From positions 288,001-352,000 of the forward strand of contig JBGAHS010000006.1 in assembly GCA_044226015.1 (NCBI GenBank): a stretch of DNA of 64,000 bases, in the 5' to 3' direction. This document shows, one piece after another, positions 30,833 to 58,901 of the stretch. Position 1 is the stretch's first letter. Every line of letters starts with the position of its first letter. Position numbers and translations under genes: made by a program. This DNA comes from Candidatus Obscuribacteraceae bacterium (GTDB lineage Bacteria > Cyanobacteriota > Vampirovibrionia > Obscuribacterales > Obscuribacteraceae). The notes beneath the pieces are model-generated. The model worked only from the letters and a program-made list of their open reading frames with translations. It was not told the DNA's origin and ran no database searches.

Positions 30833-31027
30833 ATGAATCTGCAAGATTCGCCTGCCCCTGACTTAAAAGAAGAGCCTGCGAGCACAAGGTTCATTTTTCT
30901 GTCCATGCTTGGTCTTTTCCTCGCCACGCTTTTATGGATAATATTTCAGAGTGCTGACCCAAAGATTCAAAGCGCCATGCCGATAGACAACCCACCATTT
31001 TTGATGCAAGCGAACCGGAATGACTGA
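30833..31027 (+). CDS. Small single-TM hypothetical protein
   Basis: Strong aggagg RBS; one hydrophobic helix. Confidence 0.55.
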   Translation: MNLQDSPAPDLKEEPASTRFIFLSMLGLFLATLLWIIFQSADPKIQSAMPIDNPPFLMQANRND

Positions 31028-31109
31028 CAGGGAAATCAACCATAACAATTTTGTTGGGAACGACCTTCAATATTATGCGTCCCAACTTCACTTTCGCGAC
31101 GGGGGCAAC

Positions 31110-32231
31110 ATGTTAAAAAAGACTTTCGTCTATATTTCAGCATCTATGTTTCTATGCCCGGCGAGCGTGCTGGCACAAGAAAACACTTTGCCAGGCAATA
31201 AAGCAACTCCAACCGAAGGACGTTTTCATGCTAACTATCCTTCAAGCAACGATGGAAGCATGAGCTTACTGCGCCTGAACGAGAGTTCTGCTTTGGATGA
31301 TACTGACCACAGAAGTACTCCTGAATCGAAGTCAGAACAATTGCAAAACAAATTACCAGCTTCTGTTGTAGTCCAAACCAAGCGCAAGAAGGGAAAATTC
31401 AGCCCTTTTTCAGCACTATATCCGATATCACCCATAGAAGGATTGTTGAAGCCGGTCACTAAATTGCAAGAGCAATCACTAAAATTGCAGACTCAAATTG
31501 CGCAACTTACAAAACCCGTTTCCAGCTTGCCGCCGTCGTTGTTTTCATTGGAGAACCGAATAGCTGGTCTCAGCGAAGGCATGGCAGAAATTAAAAACAG
31601 CATGAAGAGCATTGACCAGACTCTACGTCCAATGCACGAGCATCTGGGAGGAGTAAACGAAGGGCTGAATCAAACTTACTCCAGATTAGATCAAGTGAAA
31701 ACAGAATTAGCATCTACCGAAAAGAATATAGTCTCAGTGCGAGAACAAATGGGACCTATTCATACAGAGCTAAAGAAAATCAGCACAGATCTCGCTAGCG
31801 TGCGTTCAAGCATGGCAGACATCAACAAGCCAATCAGAGAGCTACGTCAGCCGATAATGGAGTTGAAGGGACCTATCACGGAACTGAAAGACCCTATCAA
31901 GAATTTGCAAAAGCCTTTAGAGGAGATTCGGGGTCCGTTGAATCAACTCAAGTCTCCTTTATATGGACTAAATCAGCCACTCGGAAGCGTACATGAAAAG
32001 TTAGAGAATGTTGATGCCCGTCTTACTGCTTTAGACAATCACCTGGTTCAGCTATATAAATTGATCTCTTTAGTGCTAACATCAATATTCGTTTCTGCAA
32101 TATTAATCGCTCTAGGGACGCCAGTCGTGGCTATTCTGCTCTGGAAAAACAGATACAAGCTGTTGAACCGTCATCCTCGTGAAATCGATTTACAGCGAAC
32201 ACTAGCCAGTGCAGGACGATACCAGCCTTAA
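31110..32231 (+). CDS. Exported coiled-coil protein with Pro-containing heptads and a C-terminal membrane anchor
   Basis: Start MLKKTF at 31110 with signal peptide; LxxPIxE heptads; C-terminal TM LISLVLTSIFVSAILIALGTPVVAILLW. Confidence 0.75.
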   Translation: MLKKTFVYISASMFLCPASVLAQENTLPGNKATPTEGRFHANYPSSNDGSMSLLRLNESSALDDTDHRSTPESKSEQLQNKLPASVVVQTKRKKGKFSPFSALYPISPIEGLLKPVTKLQEQSLKLQTQIAQLTKPVSSLPPSLFSLENRIAGLSEGMAEIKNSMKSIDQTLRPMHEHLGGVNEGLNQTYSRLDQVKTELASTEKNIVSVREQMGPIHTELKKISTDLASVRSSMADINKPIRELRQPIMELKGPITELKDPIKNLQKPLEEIRGPLNQLKSPLYGLNQPLGSVHEKLENVDARLTALDNHLVQLYKLISLVLTSIFVSAILIALGTPVVAILLWKNRYKLLNRHPREIDLQRTLASAGRYQP

Positions 32232-35200
32232 TTGGAAGAGTTTTTATCTGCCGCTGATTTTTCACGCCAGGCGAGAAAGGCTGATGCGAGAATAGCTAGA
32301 GCCACCATGCGTCCGCGCACTTCGCCGCCAGGTCCCTTTTCCTTTGCCAGACGATCAAGTTCGCCTTCACTTGCACGGAATCCGCGCATAGCTTCAGCAG
32401 CTCGTTCTTTTGCCTTGGCATGTTCTGGATGTTTAGCATCACTAAGTTGTGCGATGAAACGATTCTCCGATTCAATTGAAGCCTTTAGCTCTGCAATACG
32501 TTTTTGATCTCGCTCGCTCTCTTGCTTGCCTTCCTCTGCGGCCAATCGAGATTCTAAGTCTTTGACTTTCTCAGACCAAACTTCCACAAAACTGAGGTCA
32601 CGATCGGTACCACCAATACGAACACCGCGCTCTGAAATCTCAAGCTCTGCAACTTTGGGTTTCCCCTCCGGCAACCTTGTAATTTCAAGGCTCGCTGCGC
32701 CTGCTGTAGCCGAACTAGTGGTGCCAACATCGCTAGGCAAGACTACATGTTTTTCTAGTGATTTCGCCACAAAATCATTCATGCCAGCTCTATCAGTTCT
32801 GGCACTCGAAGAGTTTCCTCTATTGGTCTGCTCCAGAAGAGCAACATAAACAGATTTGGAGAGTTCGCCCACATTACCTCGAATGAGTCCTTCAGGCACA
32901 CTTATCTTGGTTTGCACCTTATCGGCGGGTAATTCAGTTTTTCCGTCACCGAGGAAGAACTTTCCCTCAACTTTCGATACTGGCTTCGACTCTGCACCAT
33001 CACCGGTACTATATGATATCTCCACCTTTGTGCCGTCTTTGTTCACCACAAAATCAACGCGCTCTGGGTGCAGATTGGCATCCTTTATCCCAGCACCTTG
33101 CATAAAGTCAAAAACGGCATCTCTCAAACGCAAACCTGCATCACTCGGGTTCGAGCGCATATCGCCAGATGCCCTTTCGATGTGGTCATGAAAATCTTTA
33201 ACTGCTCGCTCGTTAAGCAGTTCTTTGGGCACAGCTAGTTTGTCGGGCGGAGTCGGTTCGAAAACAGCATTCTGTCCTTCACCTGCCAGCTTTCGCTGAA
33301 GCTCTTCATTAGCAGCTTTAAGCTGCTCAATTTCTCTCTCTCTTATTGCCAACTCTTCTTGATGTCTCTGCTGATTTTCAGCGATTATAGCTTCATCGCC
33401 AACAGGTTTGAGTTTTTGCGCCGCAAGTTCTCTGACTTGCTCTTTACTTAGGTTTGAATCAGGAGCAACTTTGACATAGAGAAGGTCACCCCTTCCAGGC
33501 TTTATGACAGCAGTTTTGCCACCATCATTGACTCTCAGGCGTCCATCAGCGTTGCGCACCCCCTCGACTGGATATTCTTTCCCATCTTTCGTCTTCAGTG
33601 TCAGTCGTGGTTCCTCTCCAGGCTTTAGCGACGGAGTTTGCTCCGCCTCAACACGCTTCACGCGCGAAGACATTTCCCATGACCTGCTAACGTAATTCTT
33701 GAGATTTCCGATGGGCTTAAATACATATTTCCCAACGAGATGAAATGCCAAAATCCCCGCCAGTGTTTCTCCAGCGAAAGTGAGTGCTCTTAGCCAACCT
33801 GGCTTGTCCTCTGGTTTTCCACCGGCTTTGATCATTTCCTCTTTGATTTTTTCTACAGCAGGTTTTCCAAGTTCTGCAGCTGCATTCAAATCAATATTTT
33901 CTGCTGGCTTTCGCTGAGCAATAATCAATGCACCTTGCACTGTCGGGTCTAACTTGTATGCCGGATCAATGTTCTCAATTGATTTCAACATATTGATGCT
34001 TTGCTCATTTAGTGAGGCATCCTTCGTCTGAACGCTTGCTTGCTGCAGCGCAAGAGCATAACTCAATCGTGCTTCGAAACCGAGACGGGCTTTTGCGACA
34101 AGCTCTACTGCTCTGTCCTCCATCTGATTTAGCTTTTCACCAGTGATTGAATCGCCAGCAACTATTCTCTTTTTCGTAAGTTCCTCAATCTCTTCGTTGG
34201 TCTTCTTTTGATCAACCAAATCAGCAGCACCAATAGCTTTCTCAAAGTGCTCTCTTGCTTTCGCAAGACGCTCGCTCACTGTGCCCAAGCTAGCGTCAGC
34301 CATTATCTGCTGAGCCTTTTTCATGTCTCCGTAGCCGTGTACTTTAGCTTCAACTGATTGCGTTTCTTTCTCATCAAGCTTGTACTTATCAACGAGTTGA
34401 ATGATCTCTGGAATATTTGCTGGTGCAAACCTATCGCGCACAGAATCCTTCAATAGAGTTTCGATCTGCTTTTGATCAGACTTCTGACCAGCTCGATCAA
34501 GCGCTATCGCGTACAAGCCTGATACAACACCGTAGGAATGCAACACGGACATATCTTGCTGGTGCATGTTTCTGCGCACCAACCCAGCAGCATTGTCTAC
34601 TGTGAATTTGTCCATTTGATTTTTCTGGTCTAGATATGCTGCTATTTTGGGATCCTTCTTTCCTTCTTCATCAAGCATGCGCTGAAATACACCGCGCCTG
34701 ACAGTGTCACTTTTCGGCAATTGTCCGATAAGTCCTTCAAGTTCTCCTACTCGTTTTTGTGCATCGGGGCTCAACTCACCCACCGCCTTTTGAACAGCAC
34801 GAAGATTAAGAACAAATTGCTTCTCTTTCTCAGGTGTCCACGGCGGCAGTTCGACTCCATTTTGCATGACTCGAACTTTACTTTGCACATCATCGATGAG
34901 TTTCTGTTGATGGTCAGAAACCCAAGTTGGTAAAGGCTTAGCTGCATCTTTCAATGCGTCTTCGAATGCTTTTCGCTGCGCGACAGTCAGCTCTTTTCCT
35001 GGCTCAACAGTCTTAAGTGCTTCAAATGCGCGTTGGGTTGAGTTGAGCGTGCCCTGAGGGATAGATTTCAGAAACTCGGGGTCAGCAACTTTTTCGAGCT
35101 TGGAATTTTCCGACTTCACCTTATCTGCAGCATCTTTTACAGCTACGGGAGCCTCGGTTCGAGAATCTTTTTTGGGAGAAACCTGTTCAACTTTAGGCGA

Positions 35201-35482: not shown

Positions 35483-35695
35483 TTAACGAACCTCAAAAAT
35501 TGCAGCAAACAAAACTGCACAGATCTTCAATCTGTGCACGTCATTTCAAAAAATGATTCCTGTTTGACACGGACCTTCCTCTTTTCCGGAAAGCCCACCA
35601 TCCCCATGAAAAGATAATGCCGCCCGGACAATTTAATGTCAATGCGCAGTTCCGCATTTTTGCACTAATAGTTGTATTCCCGAATCCTTCGGGAC

Positions 35696-38600
35696 CTATT
35701 TTGCCCCCGCTGGAACAGATGTGCGTTCAGCCATCATCTTTTCGTATCGACTTCTGTAAACCGCGGCCTTATCAGGCTGACCGTTCCTCTCTAGAACGCT
35801 TGCGTAGTAGTTGAAGAGACCTATGGTTGAAGTGTCTTTCTCACCCTTGGCTCTTAGTCCAGCTTCAAGGGCCTTTTCGTAAGCATTGAAGGTTAATGCA
35901 ACTTGTTCTTTTGTACTTTCGCGATTGTCAGTTATCGTTTGACCGATCCACCAGAACGCTTCAAATGCGCGCTCAGCCTCCTCTTTACTCAAGGAGGCAA
36001 AATTCAGACTGGGAAGCTTATCGTTAACGGCTTTCAGATGTTCGATTGCTTTGTTTTTCGAACCGTCCTTATCCGTAAGCATCATTGGCTTCAAAGTTTG
36101 AAGAAGAGCTGCATACAACATGGTTTTGTCATGATCGCTCAGAGAAGGCGCTTTTAACAGCTCACTGATTTTCTCAACATTTTTCATGGCGGCACTCATT
36201 TCACCACATTGCATTTGAATTGCAGCGGCTTTAGCTAGCGAATAGCCTTCCTCAGCACGTTTTGCCGGGTCTTTTGCATAGATTCCCGCCGCTTCGAGGT
36301 TCAAGCTCAGGGCCTTGCCATAGTCGCGTGTCCTCTCCATCATTTGAGCAGCTCTCGAAATTGTATCGGCTGTCTCAACTGCATTTGGAGCATTCTTCTT
36401 GATCACATCAAGAGCCAATTCCGTCTGCGCTTTTATCTTCGAGGCATTGTAATAATATCCGTCACCCTTCATCATCGCAGAAGCGTAGCGCATTCGAGCC
36501 TGGGCAAGTTCAATGCTATCTGCTGGAAGAGCCTTTTCTCTTGCCGCTATAGACTGCTCCCAGAGCTGCTCGGATTCCCATTTTCTGGTCGAATTGCTTG
36601 CCTTCTTCTCAAGATCTTCAGCTTCATTACCAGTGTTAGGATTAGCCTTCAACCATTTATCAACCAGTTCATAAACCTGGTCAGATTTTGACGTCTCGAA
36701 TTTGTCCAGAACAGACTTGAAGGTCTCCCAAAACTCATTGTTTCGCTTGTCCTTGCCATCAAGACGGCTCTGCGCAACTTCAAGAAACTCTTTTATCAAA
36801 TGCATCTTGTTTGGATTGTCTTTTTCCAAACTTTCAATTTGTTTCTTCGCTTGAGCGCTTACCGAAGCATCAGAACTGCCCAGACAACTGATCACTTGCT
36901 TCCAGGCGCCTGACCAGAGTTTGTAGTCATCTTTTGTTAGTTTTGTATCTTTTGCAAGAACCTTATTTGCTAGCTCAAGACGAGCCTGCTCCGCGCCTCG
37001 GCCTGGCAGATTAGCCAGCAACTCCTTCAAAGCTTCGTCGTTCTTATCTATGGGATTTGAGATGCGAGCAATGGCATCTACGAAATGCTTCTGCATTTGA
37101 CTTTTCACAACGGCATCGTTGCTTTCGCTCAACTCAGAGAAAACTTTATAAGCCTGTATACGCATAGGGTCTCCGACCTTAACGCCTGAATTTGCGTCAA
37201 GTACACCGACTGCAAGCCCCATTCTTATTCTCTCACTGAGCCCATTTACTTGCAGCAGATCTCTTATCGCTGACAAACGTGGGTCATCAGATGATAGAGG
37301 TCGCGCCTTCATGTCTAAAGCAGCTTTCTCTAGAATTTGCCCCATTTCACTAAGTTGTGGTGACTTTGATTCTGGCAATTGGCTAATAAAAGAGTATGCC
37401 TTAAGAAGCTGTGCTTCAGCTTCAGGAGAGCGATTGCTTCCCCCATACAATTTGAGCATATGTTCCATTTTCGACTGTAGTATTTCTGGCCTCAGTGCCA
37501 GATGTGGTGGCAGTTTGAAATCAGAACTCTCACCAATTGCTTTCATGTAATTCTTTATGAGTTCACCATATTTTGGATCCTTCAGCATTTTCTCATGGTC
37601 TTGCTGCAGATCCGCAGCTAAGTTTCTCTGAGTTCTAACAAGTGTCTTCAAAGCATCAAGACTGTCATTCATAACTTTTGCAGCCGCCTCTTTTGGCATG
37701 GCCGCTAACAAGTCATAAGCTTCTTGCTTGGGAAACTCAGGCGTGATTCGAGCCAGAGCAACGTCAAGGTTTTCTGAACGAAGATTTTTCATCAACGATA
37801 TTGCATAAGGCTTATCAGCCGATTCTCCCATAGCTAACCGCGTAGTTTCCTCCACGGCAAGCTTAATAGTATCGTTGGCGACAGCGCGTTTTATTCCATT
37901 TGCCTTAAGTGTGTACTCAAGTGCTGCCATCTTCAAGTTATGGTCACCACTATTGATGGCATCTTTCAGCGGCGCCAATCGAGAGTCAGCGGCATCTTTT
38001 ATTTCCAGTGGAGTTTTGCTCTCTGCCATTTCTGCAAACATGGTGGCAAACTTCTTGCTTAAGGGGTGACTAGCACCCAATGTTGAGCTGGACAGAGTAG
38101 CCGCTCTAACAATTGCAGCCTGAGCCAGTCCAAGTTTGTCACTTGCCTCAAGACGCCTCAATGTCTCTTCAAGCGCTTTCTCGAGGCGCGCTGTATTTTC
38201 TGCAGAATCAGCTTTGAGATTTTTTACCGCATCAAGACTTCCATGCGCTGCAGCTGCAGAATCAGCGCCATCTAGTTTTGCTGAAATCAAAGCAGCTCTG
38301 GCTCTTATTTGTTCACTGTTTGCACCCTGGGACAACTCAGCCATCACGCGAGCAGCTGCGAATTGGTGCTCTTCAGTGAAATGTCCATTACTCTTGTCCA
38401 TGATGAAGTCAGCAGCTTTGTATCTGAGTTCCTCGGACTTGTTGCTCAAGGCAAACTTTGCATATACACTTGCTGCAAGCTTAAGATCTGTCTCCTTGAG
38501 ACCCCTATTCTCGGGAGAGAGTAGCAGCTCAGCAGCACGCACCCTCTGAATTTCCGAGAGTTTAGGATCATTCAGCGCCGACACAAGGAAGGGCACCCTC

Positions 38601-50600: not shown

Positions 50601-53248
50601 TCACCATTTGGTCCTTCTACAGAACCAATAAAGAGGTTATGACCGGAATTTCCATCAGTCCACCTACAGTCAATATTAACTCTCGAACGGGGGTCAGCTA
50701 GTATTGATTTAACATCAATAGATTTGTGAGCTTCTCGAATCGCTGGATTTTCATGCAGCAGCTCAGGGAGTGCTACCTTCGTCTTGACCGCTTGCTCGTG
50801 TCTTACGCGAACTTCACCGCTTGCCTCGTCATATGCAACAACACGCCATTTTTGAATTTCACCAGTGCTTCTTTGATAATTGACTTCTTCCCCTGGTTTA
50901 GGTACATGGTCACCGTTAAACTTACGGTACTCTTCGCTACCCATGATTCTTTCACTTGGGCGAACAAGCTCTATTTTACCGTCAACAATTCCATTGACGA
51001 TCCATTTTCTGCTACCAAAAGAGACCTCTCTTCCAGGTTCAAGACCATACTCCTTTGCTTTGGCTGGTGCCTCTTCGGCCTTCACAGGTGGTGTCACTAC
51101 TTTCTGCTCAACCTGACGTTGTGCTTCAGCGAAAGCAGCCTCATTATTCCGTTTCAGATCTTCAATCGAAACTGTTCTCTCGTAGGACAAGTCCTTGGTG
51201 AAAACAAGATCTTTTTTCGTATCAGGATCTTTGTAGCCAATTAAACGCCAGCCATCATCTATAGCTCCACCAGTTCGTCTAAGCTTGTAAGTCTCACCTA
51301 AGCGCAACTCTCTACCGGGGTTCAGTTCGTTAACACTTTCTACGGAAGCATCCTTTGATCCCGAGCCAACAATCACGGCTTTCCCCGATTTAGCATCGAT
51401 GGATTTTACTTGCCAAACTAAATCACTGTATCCTACCTTTTGCCCGATTAATCGGTCATATACGTTTTGCTCATTGCCCGCTACAACTGGCTTAGCAGGA
51501 GCATCTTGTGGGCGCAACTGGGGTACTTCCAAGCCTGGTTGATGCGATGGACGCGCTTCTCTGGGCTCACCATAAATCATTTGACGAGGGTCAAATATCT
51601 TCTCCCTTCCACCAACTGCTAGAGTTGTCCAAGCATGATTCAACGCATATTCAGGCGCCAAGCCAGCGGGGTCTCCGCCACAATAACCTTTTATGACCTT
51701 CATCTGAGGACGCTCAGAATCATTTGGATAGAATGAATCGAATACAACTTTGGTTAGAACTGCCTGGTGATTACAGACCCCGGCGCCAGTTCGATTTTTT
51801 GCGGCTTCTAAGAAATCCCCCAGCATCAACCGTCCGCCAGCATGTTCTGCACGAAGTTTGTAATAGCCTTCATCGACAGCCTTGTCGCTCCATCCGGATG
51901 GTTCCAACGCTGCTTTGGCTCTTTTGGCTATCTCTCTAGCTAGTTCTTCGGGGCGATCTTTTAAATGTGAGAGTTCCTTCTTGCACTCCTCGATGAATTT
52001 CGTCAGGGCTGGGTCTTTCCCAGGACGAGTATCAACAACATAAGATGGTCTTGTTTTATCATTGTGATGGCCATTTTCATCAATTCGATTCTGACCACCA
52101 ACAACCTGGAATCCATCAGGAATACGTCCTGAGAATTCATGATTTTTCAAATAAACGTTTGAGGCATCTCTAGCCGTTTGGCTTGCGGCGATATCAGCTT
52201 GGTCTTTGGCGGACTGGTCAGCGTTTGGCTCAATCTTCTCGGCCTTGTAGCCCCCTGGCTTCCACGCTTGTTTCGATGCATCATACACTCCCCAGGGCAA
52301 TAGAATGTCGCGCCCAAGGCGAATCTGATCACCAGGTTTTAACTCAACACCCTTAGCATCTACTGGTATCGTCTTTCCGTCACGAAGAATAGCTGTTCCA
52401 TTTTTACTTCCAAGATCTTGAATAATTACCTTTCCATCAACCTGGCTAAGCAGCGCATGACGCCTACTAACTTGCTCACTACTTATATTGATTTCTGAGT
52501 CAGAGCTGCGCCCTATAATAAGTACATCCCCTGAGGGTAGCTTCATTTCGCTTGCTTGATCTCTTGCATTAGAACGCACACCAATTCTAAAGCCCTCCCA
52601 TTTATTCTCGCCAGTTCGCACACTGGCTATGCTGGGAAAATCCATCAGATCAACAGAACGTTTGACGAGAGGTCTTTCATCAGGTGCGAAATTCTCAGTA
52701 TCAAATGCGGTATTAGAAAGCATCAATTCAGGGGCAGCCTGAGCTACTGCCTCTGGTGGCAAGCCTGCCACCGTCTGGAGTGGCGCAGCCGACAAATTTC
52801 TCATATCTGACATCACATCTGGTGTCAGTTCTTTGCCATTGCCATTGCTTTGTTCACCATGCTCAAGTTCAGCTGAGATGTCCTCAACATCCTCTTGAGC
52901 CTCATCCACTTGTGATATTGGCGAGTCGACGGAAGCATCTTTTTGTTTGGGTTCATCCTCCTTCGATTTGTCCACGTTTAAAGCATCGGCAAATATGCTT
53001 TTCAGCAGCAGCTCAGCATCATCAAGTCCCTTGTCTTTCTTACTCTTTCGAAGCTTGCTATCGAACAATGAGTCAGCTTCAAAACCTAGCCTGTCTTCTG
53101 CATCCTCATGGTGACGAGCAGTTTCTCTTTCGACATCCTTTTCCTCCTGCCGCTGAGCAGATTTATCGTCTGCTTTAGTGTCTGTGCTCTCCCTTTTGTC
53201 CTCGTTGTCCTCATCGGTATCAACGTCAATTTTCTTTGGATCAGGCAT
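35696..53248 (-). CDS. Giant multidomain protein (~5850 aa): FHA, transglutaminase/EDR1-like, PI3/4-kinase/HipA-like, PD-(D/E)XK-like, hydrophobic segment, second FHA, HEAT, YD-like and TPR repeats
   Basis: Uninterrupted 17.5-kb ORF; start MPDPKK at 53248 with agggga RBS; motifs GRSS..SRRH..SKNGT, GVCNHQ..NHAW..IFDP, GDHDQHGLN..IDTDYAF, DACGID..PIDWT. Confidence 0.88.
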   Translation of the reverse strand: MPDPKKIDVDTDEDNEDKRESTDTKADDKSAQRQEEKDVERETARHHEDAEDRLGFEADSLFDSKLRKSKKDKGLDDAELLLKSIFADALNVDKSKEDEPKQKDASVDSPISQVDEAQEDVEDISAELEHGEQSNGNGKELTPDVMSDMRNLSAAPLQTVAGLPPEAVAQAAPELMLSNTAFDTENFAPDERPLVKRSVDLMDFPSIASVRTGENKWEGFRIGVRSNARDQASEMKLPSGDVLIIGRSSDSEINISSEQVSRRHALLSQVDGKVIIQDLGSKNGTAILRDGKTIPVDAKGVELKPGDQIRLGRDILLPWGVYDASKQAWKPGGYKAEKIEPNADQSAKDQADIAASQTARDASNVYLKNHEFSGRIPDGFQVVGGQNRIDENGHHNDKTRPSYVVDTRPGKDPALTKFIEECKKELSHLKDRPEELAREIAKRAKAALEPSGWSDKAVDEGYYKLRAEHAGGRLMLGDFLEAAKNRTGAGVCNHQAVLTKVVFDSFYPNDSERPQMKVIKGYCGGDPAGLAPEYALNHAWTTLAVGGREKIFDPRQMIYGEPREARPSHQPGLEVPQLRPQDAPAKPVVAGNEQNVYDRLIGQKVGYSDLVWQVKSIDAKSGKAVIVGSGSKDASVESVNELNPGRELRLGETYKLRRTGGAIDDGWRLIGYKDPDTKKDLVFTKDLSYERTVSIEDLKRNNEAAFAEAQRQVEQKVVTPPVKAEEAPAKAKEYGLEPGREVSFGSRKWIVNGIVDGKIELVRPSERIMGSEEYRKFNGDHVPKPGEEVNYQRSTGEIQKWRVVAYDEASGEVRVRHEQAVKTKVALPELLHENPAIREAHKSIDVKSILADPRSRVNIDCRWTDGNSGHNLFIGSVEGPNGERIKVMIHKPPAYVRDWVRADNDLAAQKLAERMGSSGLFPATVMRDGMMIQKFVGVEGSNLHTFLHNMSREDAALRAKYSHLDERVFHMMDKIDPKLRTEIARTVAFSALMGDHDQHGLNFVVERTGPNPGDVAIARIDTDYAFNKDGTPQIDRKGNYGGSINGVFKYFSEREIPAEVRAQIKKVSDELNPQGQAERREARERFARETKLSIAQVNALAERALTLSETGKFPKSIDVHAPEGTNKAADIIGTAMVSSFDMNRAAQDLAKAGIKPEAIERLKTAHANLLKEVDVLSKGEGSGSNRDRLEACQSALNAIEKIGDTRNGMDVAKRQALLDLVSAVSKDASLPIDLAKLSLLESQKVVAVNEIAQKLAPLDQMRDAGMEPALVERIKSEMIQLAQAQPDKIPELTKAIDVLKQPGFAKNFGPDRMRVFADLINIPMNAEALEIPYSHFLDPKVSKEVLEFARSRYLEVAPHFKAPHASDTRGNIYEYNASIAAMKACKEEIPSKGKLVFIPAAHGSNADACGIDGIFLDPKGDRVYPIDWTRSLYTKEAKGKAIWAGSPAESAIGNHVPPDGTIGSSLANANETEMRSYVQGFVGKHPSIEASTINKDMRSSFLSFGRLGLDQRYAESVGIKRFHDYFRGQTPANPVLAELYHRANSALPHYNALKALGDRLVKGFEHDAISSAWGGVDLKGGPGKSDVSVDTGSEEYEPRRSAATGKPMKYKEVELDNSVLKEVHKVRLYEDGSIIGMSEFRDKTGRREKQIDLGHISDLAHIVEAQLDVARPAHTRLAQMKEHLRALCDVSASNPIDFKSSNELARVFEVVVSQSAPLSQAANRINRLGDILQKAEGIDEATASEIYKRTGGKKEATEVIQRMAAVIEIESKYKVDTKTADAILSRQEAIVKAEKVDAAVAREAAMLEITRGVSAKDAVELSMKAAEIRALKPSLSAEQGLNIAYSELAVKTLMPEASGQSEFSAALKAAIENAKPGEELKSIYEHLKLEAHERATANKGSEGWFHTYYALDEMSPEKLGKALGIPDGANAELIKERLGLIQERLKEREASVTPSAVESLNVNKSLLNEGVIGRFHEKVNEISNSLRNSPLDAGARLRDSVFDFLKAEGIKDSLLIENNTDVEISKDATKATVEYSTAENKKVTRSDGKFYVEGSKTEIAPDKVMTKIVLPEGLVRGNVGELSRAVYSLVVEQTSRGTDAAALADRAGVRDFVSKSLARHVELPSEVGTVTGSATALDVSKLPPLSSKVAALEITSTGVKIGGFDRDVTFAELWEGRIKGLKEKLQAEEGKAEKDQDKRKIAELKVAIDAESKFVDQLKIADKENPDRIRAEARAREIIKGFRPSETDIERLAGERGPGGAVRGKLVALTILASAFIAYREKAAAAAPPAEIKAGAYEGRPAPDHESVPEFAPEDAGLKAGFVPDVMEKPGSGYKRPTHEDLADNQSGDKAKDAADKPVLAKLDLLPDRKMTTDILMLLLPGIQRNLAIQNEKALLDKKAGVPIIDEKKLKDEWDRGEFGPESKRLWQEASKVMENESLDWMKMLDMRGLQFPPGAVYGPGISESGSQMREGDALFRARLRAGDVKPNLNFSEIKDAQLPTEEDVAKFIRAFAWTIKAQASHNESVLAGQVAYTQESLSKIPSLKPVDWNPPKDGSPEEMLRWRAGALPWIETANRVRTYAETIAAFNAATTTHGRDWPSLNDFFKWQKDVGAAATTFPDDALKDPDFPGKLTRNSNGTVKVELDMPEGIDRNNPANIAKIEKMERWLTKWSPAVDKVTKELTLALAEKDRLLVHVEEGDFEREHKVKKEEVEAFKKANLENPKDPKSPSLLKGDESDVGKFVRLADGQGDWRVLAVKPDGSYELGKRAPNGEEFNLKRYSFDSVPCDKDGKENPKGDYVKVTGYQDYQWARFYSYNNWWGVDSVHKKPTMEAKVFHKNDYVPIFDNGRMRLMPAGKLSDWQTAQERAKQTGNVVNATVDAGMIVSGLYEARAAAMAAKAMKMTGTQVFKAAVKEGAWHFALGATGFGKQAIENLTPFGYGRKINEARHYVILADISIGMLPAGAQKAVWNSVNVFKWGRTAKEAESAVEAYKLGRVVAAGTEVKMTMGLYDTAVRGAHKLYEGWKLPVIGRVLPIGVFPLADCYFLAQFSDTAAAIKDKNDPQRAMLFDAMERHKIARDKDKPLYANPSEATDEQFKQAMKPTIDEYIKRLGNKNQSAESEQIGNAAKEAIKLPANNPDRVKLSVKLAEEWKTATDAKKYAIAAALLNLSKDAEGKYPEQVMGISTSDLQQKLARSPEAIAHKSTELLSKSPSDEDREAYRQELANIYKNPSEPSEKYAAAKALLQLSMGKDGKLSPLDAKSALDINDVATFNNRSAEGLLSRLTESVLKSPDDADRKKLLKDADDKFWSGTEREKVAAAIVLLSLRGNDSLTSQIPNTNQTVAGVLDYLNKRVRNSDDPEVKIAVGDLLFRTAQMGSSSLNVHARMAAEGEKKYNEANEKLAKDPDNEDLKTAAKTAKDELEQLRNAQNDVHDFLKKVNYNAADFASTLMAVIQSDKTPRQVKLDAIASANGPRLAAILQHLKASVEPALLRETDDNARIDGLSGLYGRDSKSIEKFLRGLSSDLAADKDVRALASQALSMVALDRTTVNGIPVTPGSLVEIGSKGDVILDGPGIVPSHAVFKIEADGKQYVAAKDGPVWIARNGDHIPVPKGKLMEVKSGDSVIVGDKDKGRALFLSNEQTDAIAELSKQSKLLGSKPGAISDAYVSNLRKILENPLPPNTDLTPNQRVELLVARLQAAQAAKDLGPEIFGDKKDKAQKIIGDALADCIQTASPEISIAALVKIDAATLANMSVEKADQVRESTFKILKNTPTTEAGFALREVLLNKMPELFEGASKAQQSKAQRYLEALLMPEARQHFRSFDSRTLYPDYVAGRPELRVSALDALTKMNPDKAADLAKLLLSGGDYQGHKVQADFPVVRLQAVKTLEKALPLEVHEIALQALRTEKDPAVLARLRNLEYGQRPDMDPVKAMEEVERLESRVRDRAKPGLLNDGLDTYNKISRNGSEKFWVSQARSLALGSDGFGKMFDPFKPECVEARKALIYAVTHPELHSAEIAAAGLYGPIFNAYKDMDAIKKYASELAGPLEAALLNNPSLSASARHSLVDSYMGLKPGENGVVSKDEAAIVLARVLEAELKRMPRIPLANYDEYGKSVALQEKIVEALRELKSEKIAPILDALSHKEPIKSVDAAGRPQLVDYAGNIRKFEYDSKDRVVKFTEYPSGKVFERDSQEPQFFKTKSGEKIEAPSVQLNKAETCPTDRYQWSTFDRFNVKGDFGDFTYKKDGKSYVQKVNGMLIEEELSGNTRKITLTYPGGKETKEFVFTGDEKKVNVSVTTKPANSVQTWSLDKNYGSFVGKGADGQILSTESLRGMNVLPWNFDKGTLLVLEGGRGGTLRFTDANGAVYTKSGSDGTEQKVFAGYGDAAAHPLRSVSSAAKILSNNQSESNELARKAAELELRYAQKNDPASIFNSPADANKLADFMGKALADRNADGYTVSKSLHMAMFVEPIKGEDDPRLTVLREALRDKNDMVRLTAAQYLMDSPVSLDRNGIAEACADIVKNGSSTGRAKLAQSMLDQLKRIDSSMVEKAISDTPDKPRLGSSERPDNTSAVGNAKYQQAFERIRASLLEGPKDVLSWEWGKWGQVAKELNSSLLTWSGRFEAERQAVNQMLSNLGGLTKFLMGREELEAKKKDAKANVINDVWSSFDQLMLKAMKDGDDSQSVLARKALAFIVMSNGKELGLEDADKVKAVDKAVDAITKICKDSGPGRGDMTWIVQSLLTEKIDLSADNKKKVVDALDSLADPNKGKMNAEVAAGIAALALEQEMRFMPRQGQAGYNESVAYQNRLLDTLQRFGNKEMIPALKYFATQHSDASVRESANKAHQEILKRKNDGIVRIVDQMVSSESSVKFPSIRSAVDQRVPFLVSALNDPKLSEIQRVRAAELLLSPENRGLKETDLKLAASVYAKFALSNKSEELRYKAADFIMDKSNGHFTEEHQFAAARVMAELSQGANSEQIRARAALISAKLDGADSAAAAHGSLDAVKNLKADSAENTARLEKALEETLRRLEASDKLGLAQAAIVRAATLSSSTLGASHPLSKKFATMFAEMAESKTPLEIKDAADSRLAPLKDAINSGDHNLKMAALEYTLKANGIKRAVANDTIKLAVEETTRLAMGESADKPYAISLMKNLRSENLDVALARITPEFPKQEAYDLLAAMPKEAAAKVMNDSLDALKTLVRTQRNLAADLQQDHEKMLKDPKYGELIKNYMKAIGESSDFKLPPHLALRPEILQSKMEHMLKLYGGSNRSPEAEAQLLKAYSFISQLPESKSPQLSEMGQILEKAALDMKARPLSSDDPRLSAIRDLLQVNGLSERIRMGLAVGVLDANSGVKVGDPMRIQAYKVFSELSESNDAVVKSQMQKHFVDAIARISNPIDKNDEALKELLANLPGRGAEQARLELANKVLAKDTKLTKDDYKLWSGAWKQVISCLGSSDASVSAQAKKQIESLEKDNPNKMHLIKEFLEVAQSRLDGKDKRNNEFWETFKSVLDKFETSKSDQVYELVDKWLKANPNTGNEAEDLEKKASNSTRKWESEQLWEQSIAAREKALPADSIELAQARMRYASAMMKGDGYYYNASKIKAQTELALDVIKKNAPNAVETADTISRAAQMMERTRDYGKALSLNLEAAGIYAKDPAKRAEEGYSLAKAAAIQMQCGEMSAAMKNVEKISELLKAPSLSDHDKTMLYAALLQTLKPMMLTDKDGSKNKAIEHLKAVNDKLPSLNFASLSKEEAERAFEAFWWIGQTITDNRESTKEQVALTFNAYEKALEAGLRAKGEKDTSTIGLFNYYASVLERNGQPDKAAVYRSRYEKMMAERTSVPAGAK

Positions 53249-53546
53249 TAAACTTCCCCTAAGCACAGTTACTCTTAGAGATTTACCCGCATAACTCGAA
53301 AGCCTAGACCAGCGCAGGATAGCAATTAATGTGAAAACTGATTTCTTGCGAACTTCCGCATCAGAGCTACAGAAACGTGAATTTTAAGCTCATCGTGGAC
53401 TCGCACAGTTCGCGCCAATTCTAATCAGATAAATTCTGATGCGGTTATCCCCATGTACAACAAACCGAGACTAACTTATCATCCTGACATGTGCGTGACA
53501 GGGCGGGCTGCGCTGGATATCGAACTAAGCGGAAACATGAATTTCT

Positions 53547-56114
53547 ATGCCCGAAATTGGTCATGAGCCCAAAAGTCTCACTAGAAGCCACTTATTGCTT
53601 GACGGTTTGAGCCGAGACACGGCATCTCTGTCAGCGTCAGAGACATTACGACACGAAATCGAGGCTGAGCGAGAACTTCGAGCCAGAGAGAGCGTTCTGA
53701 GCCGATCATTAACCACAGTCATGGGAGCGTTTCGAGGAGAAACAGCGCTTGATCGCTTGCGAAATGTAGGTGATGACCCAGAAAGAATCAAAGCCATAGT
53801 TCAGGGAAATAAACCGCAAAGACTTTATGAGCAAGATGTTGCTGATATTGGCAGCGCAGCTCTAAAAACAGGATGTCTCTTCCTCAAGGGACGATTCGGC
53901 ACGGCAGCCACAGCTGTCATTTATGGACTGGACTCCGTAAAACCCGGAAGTAGTTTTGGAGAAATGGTTGTTGATGGCAGTCTCGGCATGAGCAAGGGAC
54001 TACTCAACAGGAAGTTCCTTGATTGGTCGCACAACCAGGGCTGGTCAATAGGCAAAACAGGCGTCATGTTGGGCGGGTTCAGCCGTCTCACGGAATCTTC
54101 ACTAAGCAGGCAAACCTACCTCGACAAGGATGGACAAGTCGACCTGGGCTTGGGTTCTCGCCGCATCGCTGAGACAACATTCAACCCGGCAGCCATAGCG
54201 ATGGACTACACCCTGTTCAGGTTTGCTGGTTCAGCAGTGAACAAATTAGATGCTCGACTGGGCGGCAAACTAGTGGAGAGTCCTGTGCTGCGAAACGCAG
54301 CCACAGGGGGAATTTTCGGAATGTCGACTGGTTTCTCTGGAGAGGCTCTTCGTCAATTAAGAGAAAACGATTTCGATCCAAAACGATTGGTGTCAATAAC
54401 ACTCACTCGAGGACTTGTTGATGGAGTGGCAGCTATGCCAGGAGGGTATCAGTCGCAGCGCATGGCACGATTTGCAGCAGCAGAAAATGCCAAACTTGCA
54501 CAACCAGTAAGCACTGAAACAGCAAGTATCAATCTGTCTCTGACAAAAGCCAATAATGCATTGGCTAGCATGAGCGAAACAGCGGCAGGCAGAACCGGCG
54601 CGCAACAGTTAGCCGCAGAAGGGCTTCTGAAGACTCCTGAAGCACAGCCTAAAACCCTTGAACATAGCACAGCAAAAACAGGCACGGAGGCGAGCAAAGC
54701 AACTGATACCACAAATGGTGCTAAGCTCGAAGCTTCAGCGACGAAAGTCCAGGAGGCTCCTCGCTCTAACAACCCGGCATCGGCTGAAGCTCTCCGTAGC
54801 GTGCGAGCCGAGATGGGTGCACCCGAAGAGGTCCAGGAAACTCACTACAAACTAAAACCAGAATCAGAACGAGTAAATGAAGAAGACTATCAGACCTGGC
54901 GAAATCTCAACCTGGAGCCAGCCGGTAAACGTCCAATGGAAGTTTACTCCTACAAAGGGCTGGAAATAGCAGTTCCGAAAGACTACAACGAAACACTTTC
55001 TCAGTTGAGACAATGGCGCGCTGAAAATCCTGGTCAGGAAATACCTGAGACGCATCCGCTCTATCAATTCAGAGACCGTGCCCTTCCTGAAGATATCGCA
55101 GCCGCTCTGGACAATGCTGTGCCAAATCCCGCAGAGATTAGAAGAGTGAATCTGCTCAATGAAGAAAGCGTGAGTGATGCCTATTTAGCGCAGCGGTCGC
55201 CTGGGCACAAGTCATCTGCAGAAGCCAATCCGGAGAGGGAGGTCAATTTCTACAAGCCAAAATTGAATGAGTTTTTAGAGAACGACATTTTGCATGAGTG
55301 GTCACACATTGCAAAATGGAGCAACACCGAACTTAGTTATCTCTTCGACCAGGCTGCAAAGGTTGAGGAGTCCGGTCAGCAATGGAACGACTATGCGAGA
55401 GTTAGCCTCGATGAAAACTTTGCTGTTCATGCCTCTGAAGCGATGGCAGGTAAGATAGAACACGCCCGCGAATTTGCAGATAAGGCGCCAGTCAGGGCAG
55501 CCATAATCTTGAAGATGTTCAAGGATGCATTCGACGCTCATCCCCCAAATTCTCCTCGTACGGCGCAATTGAGAGAGAACGTAGACACACTCTACAAGCC
55601 AACTCTAGAGCAAGCCAGAAAAGCACTGGTAAGCGCCATTAATGAATCTAGCAACAATCAGACGGTTGAATCAGCTGCAAAGACTCTCCTTTTTATCGGA
55701 GAAGAAAGCGACTTTGCCGCAATAACCAAACCTATTGCAAAACTAGACTTCACAGGCGAGCCGATTCACACGGAACACCTGGATAAGCTGAGGCTCTTCA
55801 AACATGGCGTAGCCAGCCTCAATCTGACCTCGACAATGACCACAGACGTCAACATCGGAAGTATTAGTAAACTTCCTACTCTAGCAGAACTCACTTTGAG
55901 CCGAACAACGGTTACAAATTGGGGACTTGGTGAATTAGCCAGAGGAAACCGTATTGGAAATCTCGACTTAAGTCATACACTTGTAGATGGTCGTGGAATT
56001 CCGCATTTGAGAACAATCAATCCTGAAAAATTAAACTTGACGGGGACAAGATTCACCGCGGAAGAACTTGAGCGCTTGAAGCAATCGCTGAAAGATAGCA
56101 AAATAAGCCACTAA
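53547..56114 (+). CDS. Hydrophobic Gly-rich N-terminal region plus HEXXH zinc metalloprotease-like domain and C-terminal leucine-rich repeats
   Basis: ILHEWSH followed by YARVSLDENFA; LRRs SLNLTST, LAELTLSRT, NLDLSHT, KLNLTGT; no signal peptide. Confidence 0.78.
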   Translation: MPEIGHEPKSLTRSHLLLDGLSRDTASLSASETLRHEIEAERELRARESVLSRSLTTVMGAFRGETALDRLRNVGDDPERIKAIVQGNKPQRLYEQDVADIGSAALKTGCLFLKGRFGTAATAVIYGLDSVKPGSSFGEMVVDGSLGMSKGLLNRKFLDWSHNQGWSIGKTGVMLGGFSRLTESSLSRQTYLDKDGQVDLGLGSRRIAETTFNPAAIAMDYTLFRFAGSAVNKLDARLGGKLVESPVLRNAATGGIFGMSTGFSGEALRQLRENDFDPKRLVSITLTRGLVDGVAAMPGGYQSQRMARFAAAENAKLAQPVSTETASINLSLTKANNALASMSETAAGRTGAQQLAAEGLLKTPEAQPKTLEHSTAKTGTEASKATDTTNGAKLEASATKVQEAPRSNNPASAEALRSVRAEMGAPEEVQETHYKLKPESERVNEEDYQTWRNLNLEPAGKRPMEVYSYKGLEIAVPKDYNETLSQLRQWRAENPGQEIPETHPLYQFRDRALPEDIAAALDNAVPNPAEIRRVNLLNEESVSDAYLAQRSPGHKSSAEANPEREVNFYKPKLNEFLENDILHEWSHIAKWSNTELSYLFDQAAKVEESGQQWNDYARVSLDENFAVHASEAMAGKIEHAREFADKAPVRAAIILKMFKDAFDAHPPNSPRTAQLRENVDTLYKPTLEQARKALVSAINESSNNQTVESAAKTLLFIGEESDFAAITKPIAKLDFTGEPIHTEHLDKLRLFKHGVASLNLTSTMTTDVNIGSISKLPTLAELTLSRTTVTNWGLGELARGNRIGNLDLSHTLVDGRGIPHLRTINPEKLNLTGTRFTAEELERLKQSLKDSKISH

Positions 56115-57046
56115 ATAACGCCCTCGATGGCGTTTCTAAATTCAGTGAATGATTTATAGGGACCGCAAAAATCAACTCCATCGGATCCGAATTCAAGCCC
56201 CACAGACTTTGCCACCACTCGTGATAATTCTTGCGACATAGTCCTCATTTCATGTGGTGCTCTTACATAACGAAGGGCAGTGAAATTGTGATTTGCTGTG
56301 GTTTCATACCTATGAATTAGCGCAGCAAACTTTTCTGAAAGCTTCGCTTCCATGCTGTTATTTGTTTTCAGAACATGCTCTCCACATGCGATTTCCCAGA
56401 GAATAAATCCTGCAGCCCAAATATCATTAGCCTTGAGCTCAGGATAATAGGAAGGCGTTGTTATAACAGCTGAAAGGTCTCTGCCATTTTCAGCTCTGAT
56501 TCTGCCGTAGTATCCAGGATCAATCAGAGTAATTTGATCTTCAGCACTCACCATAATGTTTTCTGGTTTCAGATCACCGTGCCCCCGATAACGCACGTTA
56601 TGATCAAGACTTTCAAGAACACCGAGCAATTTATGGAACAGGGAGAGGCTAGCAGAATTTGCCTGCATTAGCTTTCTCAAGCTAGGTCCTTGAATAAGTT
56701 CCAAGCGAGCAAAGCTAAAGGCGGAATCATCGACAAATTCAAGGCAATTTACGACTCCAGGAATTCCTGCAATTGCCTCAAGATAACGAGCCTGCTCCCG
56801 CAATAGGTCTTGCGAGTTAGGTACAAACTCCAATACACCACTGCTGATATGTTCCAATGCATGAGACGAGAAACAGCCTGTGTCAACTTCACCGCCACCA
56901 AAGCCGACACCAGCAACTTTCAGTGCAAAACTTCCATTCTTGTCAGTAGCTTTGTAAATTGAGGAAAATGCCCCGCGACCTATGAGTTCTCCAACTTCCA
57001 ATTCGCCGATTTTTAGACCATTCCAGTGAATTTGTTCTTGTTTCAT
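56111..57046 (-). CDS. Hanks-type Ser/Thr protein kinase
   Basis: IGRGAFSSIY, FALKV, HGDLKPEN, LIDPG, NDIWAAG. Confidence 0.85.
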   Translation of the reverse strand: MKQEQIHWNGLKIGELEVGELIGRGAFSSIYKATDKNGSFALKVAGVGFGGGEVDTGCFSSHALEHISSGVLEFVPNSQDLLREQARYLEAIAGIPGVVNCLEFVDDSAFSFARLELIQGPSLRKLMQANSASLSLFHKLLGVLESLDHNVRYRGHGDLKPENIMVSAEDQITLIDPGYYGRIRAENGRDLSAVITTPSYYPELKANDIWAAGFILWEIACGEHVLKTNNSMEAKLSEKFAALIHRYETTANHNFTALRYVRAPHEMRTMSQELSRVVAKSVGLEFGSDGVDFCGPYKSFTEFRNAIEGVI

Positions 57047-57966
57047 ATCCCCTCATCTGCAAAAGCGAAGTAATCATTTGCCTCTAAGATCAAAGCGCGA
57101 ACTCGAGGAATGTCTTCTCTTGCAATCGCATTATCTTGAAGTGCAAAATCTATTGCACGATATACCTGTGGCTTCAAATCCAAACGAAAGCTCCGCAAGT
57201 CTTTCAATGGAGCGCTTAAAAGCATCTCTTTGTCTATCAGCATGCCCTCGCTGTACTCGAATTGCCTTGGAAATTCACCAGTGAGCAAATAGAACCAGAC
57301 ACTAGCGAGAGCATATATATCCGACTCTCGCGTGGGTGCAGCCCCTCTAATTACTTCTGGCGCCAGGCACAGCCAGCTCATCGTGGAGAGTTTGTCGGGG
57401 TAGTGCTGAGCAACTGCTGTTTCGAGTGGTATTGAATATCTATCTCGAGACCACCAATAGTCACTTATTCTCATTGTATTGGCCGCAACTCTGATGGATT
57501 CCGGGCTCAATGCACAATGCACAAGGTTGTTTTTGTGCAGCGCCTCTAATCCAAGAATGAGATTTTGAGCGGCTAGCAAAAAATTCGATTCATCTAATTG
57601 CACGCCCGCTGCATAGAGAGGCAGATAGGAATCATCTTCGGGGCAATCAATAATCTGAAAGTAGACACCATCTTGCAGCCAGCCAGACTCAACGATGTTC
57701 ACTACGCCAGGGTGCATGTTAGTGGCTCCACGAGCCCCCAGAGCGTTGGTACAAAGAGAGAGAAGGAACTCATCATCTTCAGTGTCAATCAACTCGCAAA
57801 CAAAACGTCCAGCAAATTTGGATGAAGCAAGCTCCCAACGTGCAGAACAATCGCCATCAGAAAGAGGGCGCACCCATCTAAAAGTGGAATCTGGAACCGC
57901 TTTACCTGGTTCAAATCGAAATACCCTTCGAGAAGCTGTTAAAATGTTTCTAGCAAGAAACGCCAT
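57043..57966 (-). CDS. Ser/Thr kinase-fold protein, probable pseudokinase
   Basis: HPGVV, LEALH..LVHCALSPES, ISDYW, LAPEV, SDIYALA; catalytic Asp, beta3 Lys and Gly loop missing; ATGA-coupled to the kinase. Confidence 0.78.
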   Translation of the reverse strand: MAFLARNILTASRRVFRFEPGKAVPDSTFRWVRPLSDGDCSARWELASSKFAGRFVCELIDTEDDEFLLSLCTNALGARGATNMHPGVVNIVESGWLQDGVYFQIIDCPEDDSYLPLYAAGVQLDESNFLLAAQNLILGLEALHKNNLVHCALSPESIRVAANTMRISDYWWSRDRYSIPLETAVAQHYPDKLSTMSWLCLAPEVIRGAAPTRESDIYALASVWFYLLTGEFPRQFEYSEGMLIDKEMLLSAPLKDLRSFRLDLKPQVYRAIDFALQDNAIAREDIPRVRALILEANDYFAFADEGI

Positions 57967-58037
57967 GTCAGTAGGTTCCTATGCGCGGCTTCCTTTAGTT
58001 TACCGCCAATTGCACCGATAAAATACCTGTCTACAGA

Positions 58038-58823
58038 ATGCAGAATGTTAATACAAATTGGCTGGAAATAGGAAGAGAAATCTTCCTGTATCAATCATGC
58101 GACTTTTACTTGTACCAGACAGCGTGCCTGCTTGAAATCCCAAATGAAAGTTTCAGCTCCACTGAAGATGATCTGATCTATCATCTCGGCGCTGACTTAG
58201 TTGTTCTAAAAGCCGTTCCTATGAGGTCCCTGGTAATACAAAAGGCTCTAAACAATGCACTTGCAGAAGCCAAAGAGAGCTCAACCATCAGCCTTATATC
58301 TAAGAAACTAGAAGAGCTGCTCGATTTAACTGTTGAGGCAAAAGCTGAATTTTTCTCGAAAATAGGCACAGTCAATCGGGACGTTTCAATAGAAAAGCTG
58401 TTCTTCCACCTCAGCAGCAGCAATGAGAAACTTGTCCATTTTAAAGAAGATTCTCTTGATCTAGCTGGAGACTACTTCTGCCGTGAAATCTGCAAAGAAT
58501 TTGCCTGTTTTCCAAATATCAAAAGTTTGAACCTATCCAATTGCAATCTGACGGACAGCGACTTGTCTTTCCTTCAGTCCCTGTCTCAGCTGAAATCGCT
58601 GAACTTGAGCAATAATCCTGTAAGCAGCATCGGACTGCGGAATTTAAATGCTTATTTGATCGAAGAACTAAATCTGGCAAACACTAATTTTAATGCCAGC
58701 GGAACAATGCAATTGAGAAAGTTCCATTCGCTTCGCTCACTCACACTGCCATCGACTTTCGATCAACTATCGATGGATTCCCTGAGCAGTTCATTGATCA
58801 ACTGCTACATCACTCGCGAGTGA
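58038..58823 (+). CDS. Leucine-rich repeat protein; degenerate paralogue of the C-terminal half of 53547-56114
   Basis: IKSLNLSNCNLTD, LKSLNLSNNPV, EELNLANT; N-terminal collinear similarity to the protease domain. Confidence 0.8.
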   Translation: MQNVNTNWLEIGREIFLYQSCDFYLYQTACLLEIPNESFSSTEDDLIYHLGADLVVLKAVPMRSLVIQKALNNALAEAKESSTISLISKKLEELLDLTVEAKAEFFSKIGTVNRDVSIEKLFFHLSSSNEKLVHFKEDSLDLAGDYFCREICKEFACFPNIKSLNLSNCNLTDSDLSFLQSLSQLKSLNLSNNPVSSIGLRNLNAYLIEELNLANTNFNASGTMQLRKFHSLRSLTLPSTFDQLSMDSLSSSLINCYITRE

Positions 58824-58901
58824 GAGACAAATTTACTTGCTCGATAAAACAAAGACAGAGAGTTAAACTCCCTGTCTTTGCGGGCGGCTGGTGTATGAAA
58901 G

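Follow-up and report, generated by a model that had tools for sequence, protein, structure and literature searches.

Positions 32228 to 58823 of the window, a stretch of 64,000 nucleotides from a Candidatus Obscuribacteraceae bacterium (contig JBGAHS010000006.1, positions 288,001 to 352,000), hold six genes, here named P1 to P6. On the evidence of its genes, this locus is one copy of a modular gene family, found mostly in Obscuribacterales, in which enzyme domains lie beside matched small partners. We favour, at about even chances, the reading that it is a polymorphic effector system whose enzymatic or pseudo-enzyme partners would keep each enzyme off in the producing cell.

The six open reading frames (ORFs) all lie where a preliminary description of this DNA had recognised six adjacent genes; they have four transcription directions and do not form one operon. 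P1 (35696-53266, minus strand) encodes a protein of 5856 amino acids (aa) from a GTG, or of 5850 aa from the ATG at 53248; with the latter start the 298-bp spacer reported between P1 and P3 holds. Two parts are joined in this protein: an enzyme cargo at the N-terminus (about aa 1-2300) and what is called here the core (about aa 2300-5856). P2 (32228-35482, minus strand, 1084 aa) is a stand-alone cargo protein that ends in a domain shared with P1 (32252-33265, including the terminal segment named TAIL); the common domain, already noticed earlier, has 50% identity over 342 aa (E 2e-97). P3 (53547-56114, plus strand, 855 aa) has an N-terminal domain (53808-54473) and a zinc-protease-like HEXXH...E domain (54900-55610), followed by leucine-rich repeats (LRR). 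P4 (56111-57046, minus strand), the partner of the EDR1-like domain described below, is a small Hanks-type kinase of a distinct family and keeps the Lys, HGD and DPG kinase motifs. P5 (57043-57966, minus strand), the partner of a LepB/HipA-like domain, overlaps P4 start to stop and belongs to a family devoid of the conserved catalytic Asp and Lys, which bears out its designation as a pseudokinase. P6 (58038-58823, plus strand) is a HEXXH-less copy of the C-terminal half of P3 (E 3e-6; 207 bits with a P3-seeded profile) plus LRR, in agreement with its description as a protease-dead paralogue. The pair P5-P4 is convergent with P3, with a 4-nt overlap at the P3 end, and divergent from P6. That the six proteins have no signal peptides agrees with a crude N-terminal hydropathy test (maximum 1.17). 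All domain calls are from sequence profiles.

In an independent study, an activated-sludge run from 2016 yielded a 30-kb contig that covers window positions 39001-58900 unbroken, with 43 substitutions and one 11-base insertion; the fusion in P1 and the gene order from P1 to P6 are therefore real and not products of assembly. The insertion of the 2016 strain lies at window position 56110, the convergent P3/P4 junction. The host genome (8.19 Mb, 92% complete) has dozens of ORFs longer than 2,200 aa, with giants that reach 14,391 aa.

The acidic N-terminus of P1 is followed by a FHA domain (aa 250-318; 52301-52543, on the minus strand like all P1 features; Pfam E 3e-15) with the canonical R-S-H-N phosphothreonine-binding residues. 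The next domain (51503-52186) is, by its profile match and its conserved Cys-His-Asp triad, a predicted EDR1/transglutaminase-like papain fold. The window copy alone gives a weak Pfam match (E 0.03); in the family, Pfam EDR1 (PF14381) is matched by 17 of 23 members (best E 1e-11) and Transglut_core by 10. Nothing significant was found for this domain among PDB sequences (best E 0.08).

This domain is the one tracked by the P4 kinase. The survey of the order yielded 110 EDR1-like domains in 59 genomes and 119 P4 kinases, set apart from generic kinases by a score gap (at least 173 bits vs at most 137), in 73 genomes. A P4 kinase lies within 15 kb of 40 of the 110 EDR1-like domains, in 34 genomes and 15 genera, and 28 of these 40 have it downstream on the same strand. 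Random placement predicts 0.9, a baseline that ignores shared ancestry; the case rests more strongly on how the linkage spreads over 15 genera, on gene orders that are shuffled and on its presence in a second class. The unlinked status of EDR1-like domains comes from genome-wide domain and kinase searches and the linkage count. Because the kinase searches scored only 21-23 candidates in each genome, and 10 in the phylum search, they may have missed diverged copies; loci compared gene by gene were chosen from the best P4 matches. A P4 search over GTDB gave generic kinases only. Among the named homologues of P4 are proteins of 'Candidatus Obscuribacterales bacterium' and 'Cyanobacteria bacterium SZAS LIN-5'.

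Homologues of the window genes are thus linked in other genomes, and the view of the preliminary description that the locus is one recurring system survived this comparison: linkages recur across genera, and one locus, G025:C3 (G stands for genome, with G000 the host genome, C for contig and L for fetched locus), has relatives of all six genes in shuffled order, P1 being represented by two genes. The search detected no atypical kinase domain at G025:C3, and its P2 relative resembles the N-terminal helical part of P2 without having the shared domain. In the loci of genus g54 and in G108, P4-P5 are divergent from a cargo gene with FHA, EDR1-like and kinase domains, with the core next in g54. Tandem arrays of five, three and two kinases with 57-81% identity each stand behind one effector, and two pseudokinases are also found in such an arrangement. 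Comparison of G101 with G100, whose flanks are 95% identical, shows that a 1695-aa EDR1-domain gene is gone and the kinase is kept. In a P4 tree built by a quick method, linked and unlinked kinases are clustered yet mixed, with 11 changes.

The genes could merely be co-located in a recombination hotspot of a kinase-rich genome, with no functional pairing. Kinase profiles are matched by 172 of the 6279 ORFs of the host genome, and gene order and strand vary between loci, as this would predict. However, the linkages are family- and domain-specific, survive rearrangement in 15 genera and reach another class, and the P4 family is separated by its score from generic kinases. We therefore regard chance co-location as very improbable.

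The partner of P5 is a different part of the P1 cargo, an atypical kinase domain (49886-50671) that is LepB_N/HipA-like according to weak profile matches: LepB_N is found in four of nine members (best E 0.004) and PDB entry 4jw1 is matched with E 0.013. In the alignment, an Asp, an Asn and a second Asp are invariant, and His or Arg takes the usual Lys position. The P5 pseudokinase is within 10 kb of such a domain in 13 of 17 cases, against 0.19 expected, and directly downstream of it, at 82 and 103 bp, in two genomes. When no P4 kinase is on the contig, four of six P5 copies still have the domain within 10 kb. P5 thus tracks the LepB/HipA-like domain rather than P4. The enzyme/pseudo-enzyme pairs proposed in the preliminary description are real. 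P4 and P5 show no BLAST similarity, and we rejected the idea of recent paralogues. On the contig G025:C1 (about 120700-176000; L236, L293-L295), an open frame of 18,420 aa encodes six or more atypical kinase domains and numerous FHA domains, with a HEXXH domain close to its end, and is followed 8 kb downstream by a P5-type pseudokinase.

Two further cargo features of P1 surround its atypical kinase domain. Small beta-rich repeats (50723-51466), delineated with a custom profile and with no Pfam match, are in our reading SH3-like. A domain that recurs in 41 copies in the sequences compared (48647-49171), and in which three Asp are invariant and a Lys is nearly so, gives no meaningful Pfam match and might be PD-(D/E)xK-like, that is nuclease-like.

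P3 and P6 provide the third type of partnership. P3 is matched in its own genome, in 34 of the 39 others from the order and in none of the 21 from elsewhere, which makes 35 of 61; among the genomes searched, the family defined by its lineage-specific N-terminal domain is confined to the order. This domain heads proteins with GH14 beta-amylase, NADAR/gp30.3, NUDIX, HD, poly(A)-polymerase-like, PGDYG, atypical-kinase and HEXXH parts, at least seven unrelated enzyme types in all; 9 of 28 C-terminal parts have a Pfam match, the further types coming from other scans. A weak lead to the PT-TG pre-toxin domain (score 0.84) stays below the lead threshold of 0.9. The beta-amylase protein (Pfam E 2e-78) is encoded in the host genome at G000:C8:585767-588514 (L226) and also found at G007:C83 (L280); such a cargo hints that some targets may be starch-bearing algae.

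In the protease domain of P3, HEXXH and a downstream Glu are invariant. P3 and its HEXXH domain give no significant match to PDB, and a comparison of the domain with named zinc metalloprotease toxin families gave one weak Peptidase_Mx1 match in 18 members only. Ten of 16 long HEXXH-LRR proteases have a short paralogue within 25 kb on the same contig, and 14 of 16 short paralogues have no HEXXH. The host genome has a second HEXXH-LRR gene with a HEXXH-less copy (G000:C1:742676-749199; L230); this pair flanks two Ser/Thr kinases of the membrane type, neither of which is related to P4 or P5. Strain variation concentrates in the P3 protease (55209-55928, plus strand), as 23 of 40 listed differences in 19.9 kb fall in these 720 bp. 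P3 of the host genome and of the 2016 strain differ by 14 changed and 11 silent codons, and the variable segment looks like an exchanged allele. None of the 40 listed differences, out of 43, is in P4, P5 or P6.

The domain shared by P1 (46370-47398, ending in TAIL at 46370-46894) and P2 is, from its distribution, a C-terminal tag on cargo genes that flank the core or are fused to it. TAIL, the last 170 aa of the shared domain, matches the C-termini of 11 other cargo genes (HHalign 96%, E 3e-9), most of which immediately precede a core gene. Searching with a TAIL profile gave 30 distinct copies, 10 of them absent from its training set; 26 are within 10 aa of the C-terminus and the four internal ones are all core fusions, as in P1. 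Several TAIL genes flank one core on both sides, as P2 does at the window locus, and a third TAIL protein of the host genome is encoded on contig C1. The full shared domain is present in 7 of 107 genomes of the order and the core signature in 46 of 107. In G086, G089 and G090 a gene of roughly 1,100 aa ending in the shared domain directly precedes a core gene of 2,500 aa, which in G090 is truncated at the end of the contig, and the P1-type fusion recurs in G098 and G096. The shared domain has no usable match in the ESM Atlas.

The core part of P1 spans roughly 3,500 aa, and core proteins across the family 2,500-3,900 aa. Profile and alignment delimit a core signature region (44141-46060) with a Gly/Ala-rich, moderately hydrophobic helical stretch. 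The remainder (35699-42586) has a degenerate FHA domain, HEAT repeats, one RHS/YD-like stretch and C-terminal TPRs. No significant match to the core region was found in PDB.

Outside the order, a sample of 220 genomes of the phylum has the P4 kinase in eight genomes only, all of one family (f24; L244-L251) of another class, which its level of kinship and its high GC mark as probably Sericytochromatia. The P4-type kinase directly follows an EDR1-like gene in 8 of 8 f24 loci, three of the eight being weak (22-24 bits), and three of the EDR1-like genes match Pfam EDR1 with E 2e-16 to 6e-13. An f24 EDR1-like gene has a RHRALLF motif that we take to be nearer to plant EDR1.

The preferred reading assigns a role to each of these parts. 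TAIL cargo such as P2 would dock on the core, here P1, which is already fused to one cargo; the positional rule of TAIL is observed, the docking is what we infer from it. The hydrophobic helical region of the core would help to cross the target membrane, and P3-type proteins would use their own N-terminal domain for this crossing. In the producer, P4 would phosphorylate the FHA-EDR1 cassette, which the adjacent FHA would then clamp shut, P5 would bind the atypical kinase domain, and P6, as a dead decoy, would bind either P3 or the P3 substrate. Since P5 and P6 are catalytically dead, any action of theirs must be through binding. Away from their guards, the enzymes would attack a neighbouring cell. 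We lean towards this guarding role because the kinase arrays and the kinase kept after effector loss resemble immunity genes, and because the TakA/TglT pair discussed below sets a precedent; the strain variation centred on the P3 protease adds to its support.

Alternatively, the partners could be activators or signalling subunits: a phospho-Thr written by P4 and read by the FHA domain would license assembly, self-processing or export, P5 and P6 would be scaffolds, and the EDR1-like domain and its kinase would form a two-gene analogue of plant EDR1/CTR1. The phosphothreonine-binding residues are kept in 32 of 44 FHA domains ahead of an EDR1-like domain and in 0 of 19 core-internal ones (p 2e-8), which fits a kinase-FHA link. 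The conserved catalytic residues of P4, the position of P5 directly upstream of P4 in 11 of 17 cases, the many partnerless enzyme copies and one kinase clade with no nearby effector also agree with activation, as does the f24 kinase kept beside an EDR1-like domain devoid of its nucleophile. However, diverging arrays, the kinase that outlives its effector and the position after a C-terminal enzyme domain are immunity-like, and many linked proteins have no detectable FHA. We hold activation to be possible but rather doubtful. The two roles are partly compatible, as an ancestral regulatory pair may have been recruited as a safety catch. As the main organising rule of the locus, the kinase-FHA gating proposed in the preliminary description is not supported: the kinase tracks the EDR1-like domain even at linked loci with no detected FHA (for instance L175, L184, L188, L189, L201 and L206). 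Two other giants carry EDR1-like domains: a 3127-aa protein (G000:C6:382299-391682) with two FHA domains and a Cys-less EDR1-like domain has no adjacent P4 kinase, and a 17,447-aa open frame at G094:C138 43452-56654 carries two intact EDR1-like domains.

Several observations speak against the guard hypothesis. Cognate partners are adjacent in three specific linkages, yet many enzyme copies have no adjacent partner: of 129 atypical kinase domains only 12 have a P5 nearby and 117 do not, and for 72 of the 119 P4 kinases the 15 kb on either side hold no EDR1-like domain, in part owing to short contigs. A clade of seven P4-type kinases has no EDR1-like gene in the fetched stretch. The linkage counts are also inflated by shared ancestry. 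The Cys is kept in 19 of 23 unlinked vs 37 of 39 linked EDR1-like domains (Fisher p 0.18), leaving unsupported the idea that the kinase is needed only when the Cys is intact. In the five f24 loci that align, the nucleophile is Ser, Ala or Val and the kinase is still kept, which an antidote-only role does not explain. P6 has no listed strain difference while P3 varies (three of the 43 differences are not listed). Matches of the atypical kinase domain are weak overall (E 0.004-0.04 only), and so is the nuclease-like assignment of the three-Asp domain. Finally, no marker of a type III (T3SS), type IV (T4SS) or type VI (T6SS) secretion system was found in the host genome. As to the clade of seven (L180, L183, L196, L200, L202, L204, L252), at least six of its kinases lie behind one conserved housekeeping-like gene, which we read as potassium-channel/TrkA-like.

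The search for delivery markers covered the T6SS sheath protein TssC/VipB, FHIPEP (T3SS) and VirB4 (T4SS), none of which was matched in the 92%-complete host genome; the controls were positive, in E. coli for TssC/VipB. The T6SS PpkA/Fha analogy drawn in the preliminary description is thereby left with no machine to act on. FtsK/EccC gives short partial matches only, and the host genome has two secretins, eight pilus-type ATPases and many TolC genes, all unlinked to the locus. These proteins might never leave the cell and be intracellular defence or signalling scaffolds, such as phage-triggered suicide enzymes held off by their partners. The missing secretion markers and signal peptides agree with such a function, and NADAR, NUDIX and nuclease-like domains are common in anti-phage conflict. 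However, catalogues of defence systems do not recognise the locus, and export would account better for the beta-amylase cargo, the RHS/YD stretch and the hydrophobic region of the core, so that we find an intracellular role unlikely. PADLOC returns generic kinase-domain matches for P4 and P5 and none for P1, P2, P3 and P6. NCBIfam gives generic kinase and FHA matches that are all far below cut-off (MAD6, 30-44 bits vs a cut-off of 460). For the catalogued anti-phage kinase systems PD-T4-6, MADS and BREX PglW there is no full-length match above cut-off and there are no partner genes, and these candidates were discarded. A literature search found no description of these genes or of the system, with most subscription journals and supplements outside its reach. 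The main text of a preprint on giant genes (10.1101/2023.11.21.568195) has no mention of Obscuribacter or Melainabacteria, and the term-matched passages of a bacterial pseudokinase review (PMC12599244) and of PMC11319675 hold nothing on the system.

The effector reading, named first above, finds its closest likeness in polymorphic toxin systems, which, in excerpts of Zhang et al. 2012 (PMC3482391), include transglutaminase, metallopeptidase and kinase toxin classes and LRR immunity proteins. Conserved trafficking-like domains, swappable enzymes, small partner genes (here next to part of the enzyme copies), tandem arrays and orphan partners are common to both, as far as these excerpts go. A constant domain with interchangeable enzymes is found in the P3 N-terminal domain, TAIL and the core, for which a trafficking role is conjectured, and partner arrays and orphan partners are present. 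Unlike in polymorphic toxins, no known trafficking domain or secretion system was found at the window locus, TAIL cargo has its constant part at the C-terminus, and catalogued Imm families are replaced by a kinase, a pseudokinase and a dead copy of the enzyme. In its workings the locus resembles a polymorphic toxin system and is a candidate member, its toxicity and export being putative.

A model for P4 is the toxin-antitoxin pair TakA/TglT, described in part of PMC7205606, in which a kinase neutralises by phosphorylation the enzyme encoded by the neighbouring gene. Both cases have a kinase gene beside an enzyme gene; TakA, an atypical kinase, targets a small nucleotidyltransferase, whereas P4 is Hanks-type and linked to a papain-fold module of giant proteins. 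In plants, according to passages of PMC10318531, the EDR1 peptidase-like domain (PF14381) goes with a Ser/Thr kinase in EDR1/CTR1. The domains are fused there and encoded by separate genes at the window locus. This likeness may be convergent. Plant EDR1/CTR1 kinases are Raf-like. The T6SS regulators PpkA/Fha1 and the Myxococcus Kil system, a Tad-based killing machine with FHA proteins (excerpts of PMC8460266), likewise combine FHA domains and Ser/Thr phosphorylation in contact-dependent attack. The window locus differs from them in that its genome gave no T6SS sheath gene, the locus itself has no pilus genes and the FHA is on the cargo; the host genome does have secretins and several pilus-type ATPases. 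Among the relatives of the host, Vampirovibrio preys on Chlorella, and a T4SS has been proposed for it in the part of PMC4451040 consulted; the host genome has no T4SS marker.

Giant single chains are known among toxins. The carrier-like aspect of P1 recalls MARTX and other large single-chain toxins, in which a giant chain combines several enzyme cassettes with a domain of cysteine-protease fold and a helical region that is hydrophobic. P1 differs from them in having no Pfam or PDB sequence match and no detected RTX repeats, and in that cargo and carrier are often separate genes in its family.

To our knowledge, Obscuribacterales are uncultured and have large genomes full of giant unexplained proteins. 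For a large part of these giants the locus supplies an inventory of components and the rules by which they pair, and it suggests antagonism or predation as a lifestyle hypothesis. If the partners are truly guards, it would offer three unusual immunity mechanisms (Hanks kinase, pseudokinase and dead paralogue), together with two candidate delivery modules that match nothing in the libraries. The pairing of an EDR1-domain gene with a kinase gene could also be a small bacterial model for the role of the EDR1 domain in plant EDR1/CTR1. A bolder and tentative extension, which we find less probable than the guard role itself, is that of an undescribed protein-delivery system separate from T3SS, T4SS and T6SS. 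Its core would load TAIL cargo and its N-terminal domain would ship single enzymes. Each toxic enzyme would be disarmed by a new kind of immunity (Hanks kinase with FHA clamp in cis, pseudokinase or dead enzyme copy). It would have grown from an EDR1-domain/kinase pair shared with another non-photosynthetic class, with cargo such as beta-amylase and LepB-like kinase suggesting attack on algae.

The surroundings of the locus hold other genes of related types. The C-terminal part of a 3565-aa Gly/Ser/Asn-rich adhesin-like protein occupies positions 60555-63998 (minus strand) and continues to C9:359252; the part scanned has no Pfam match. On the other side, a further Ser/Thr kinase of 650 aa (20785-22737, plus strand) is outside the P4 and P5 families. 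The ORF at 31020-32231 (plus strand) encodes a 403-aa coiled-coil repeat protein with a C-terminal hydrophobic segment and overlaps the P2 stop by 4 nt.

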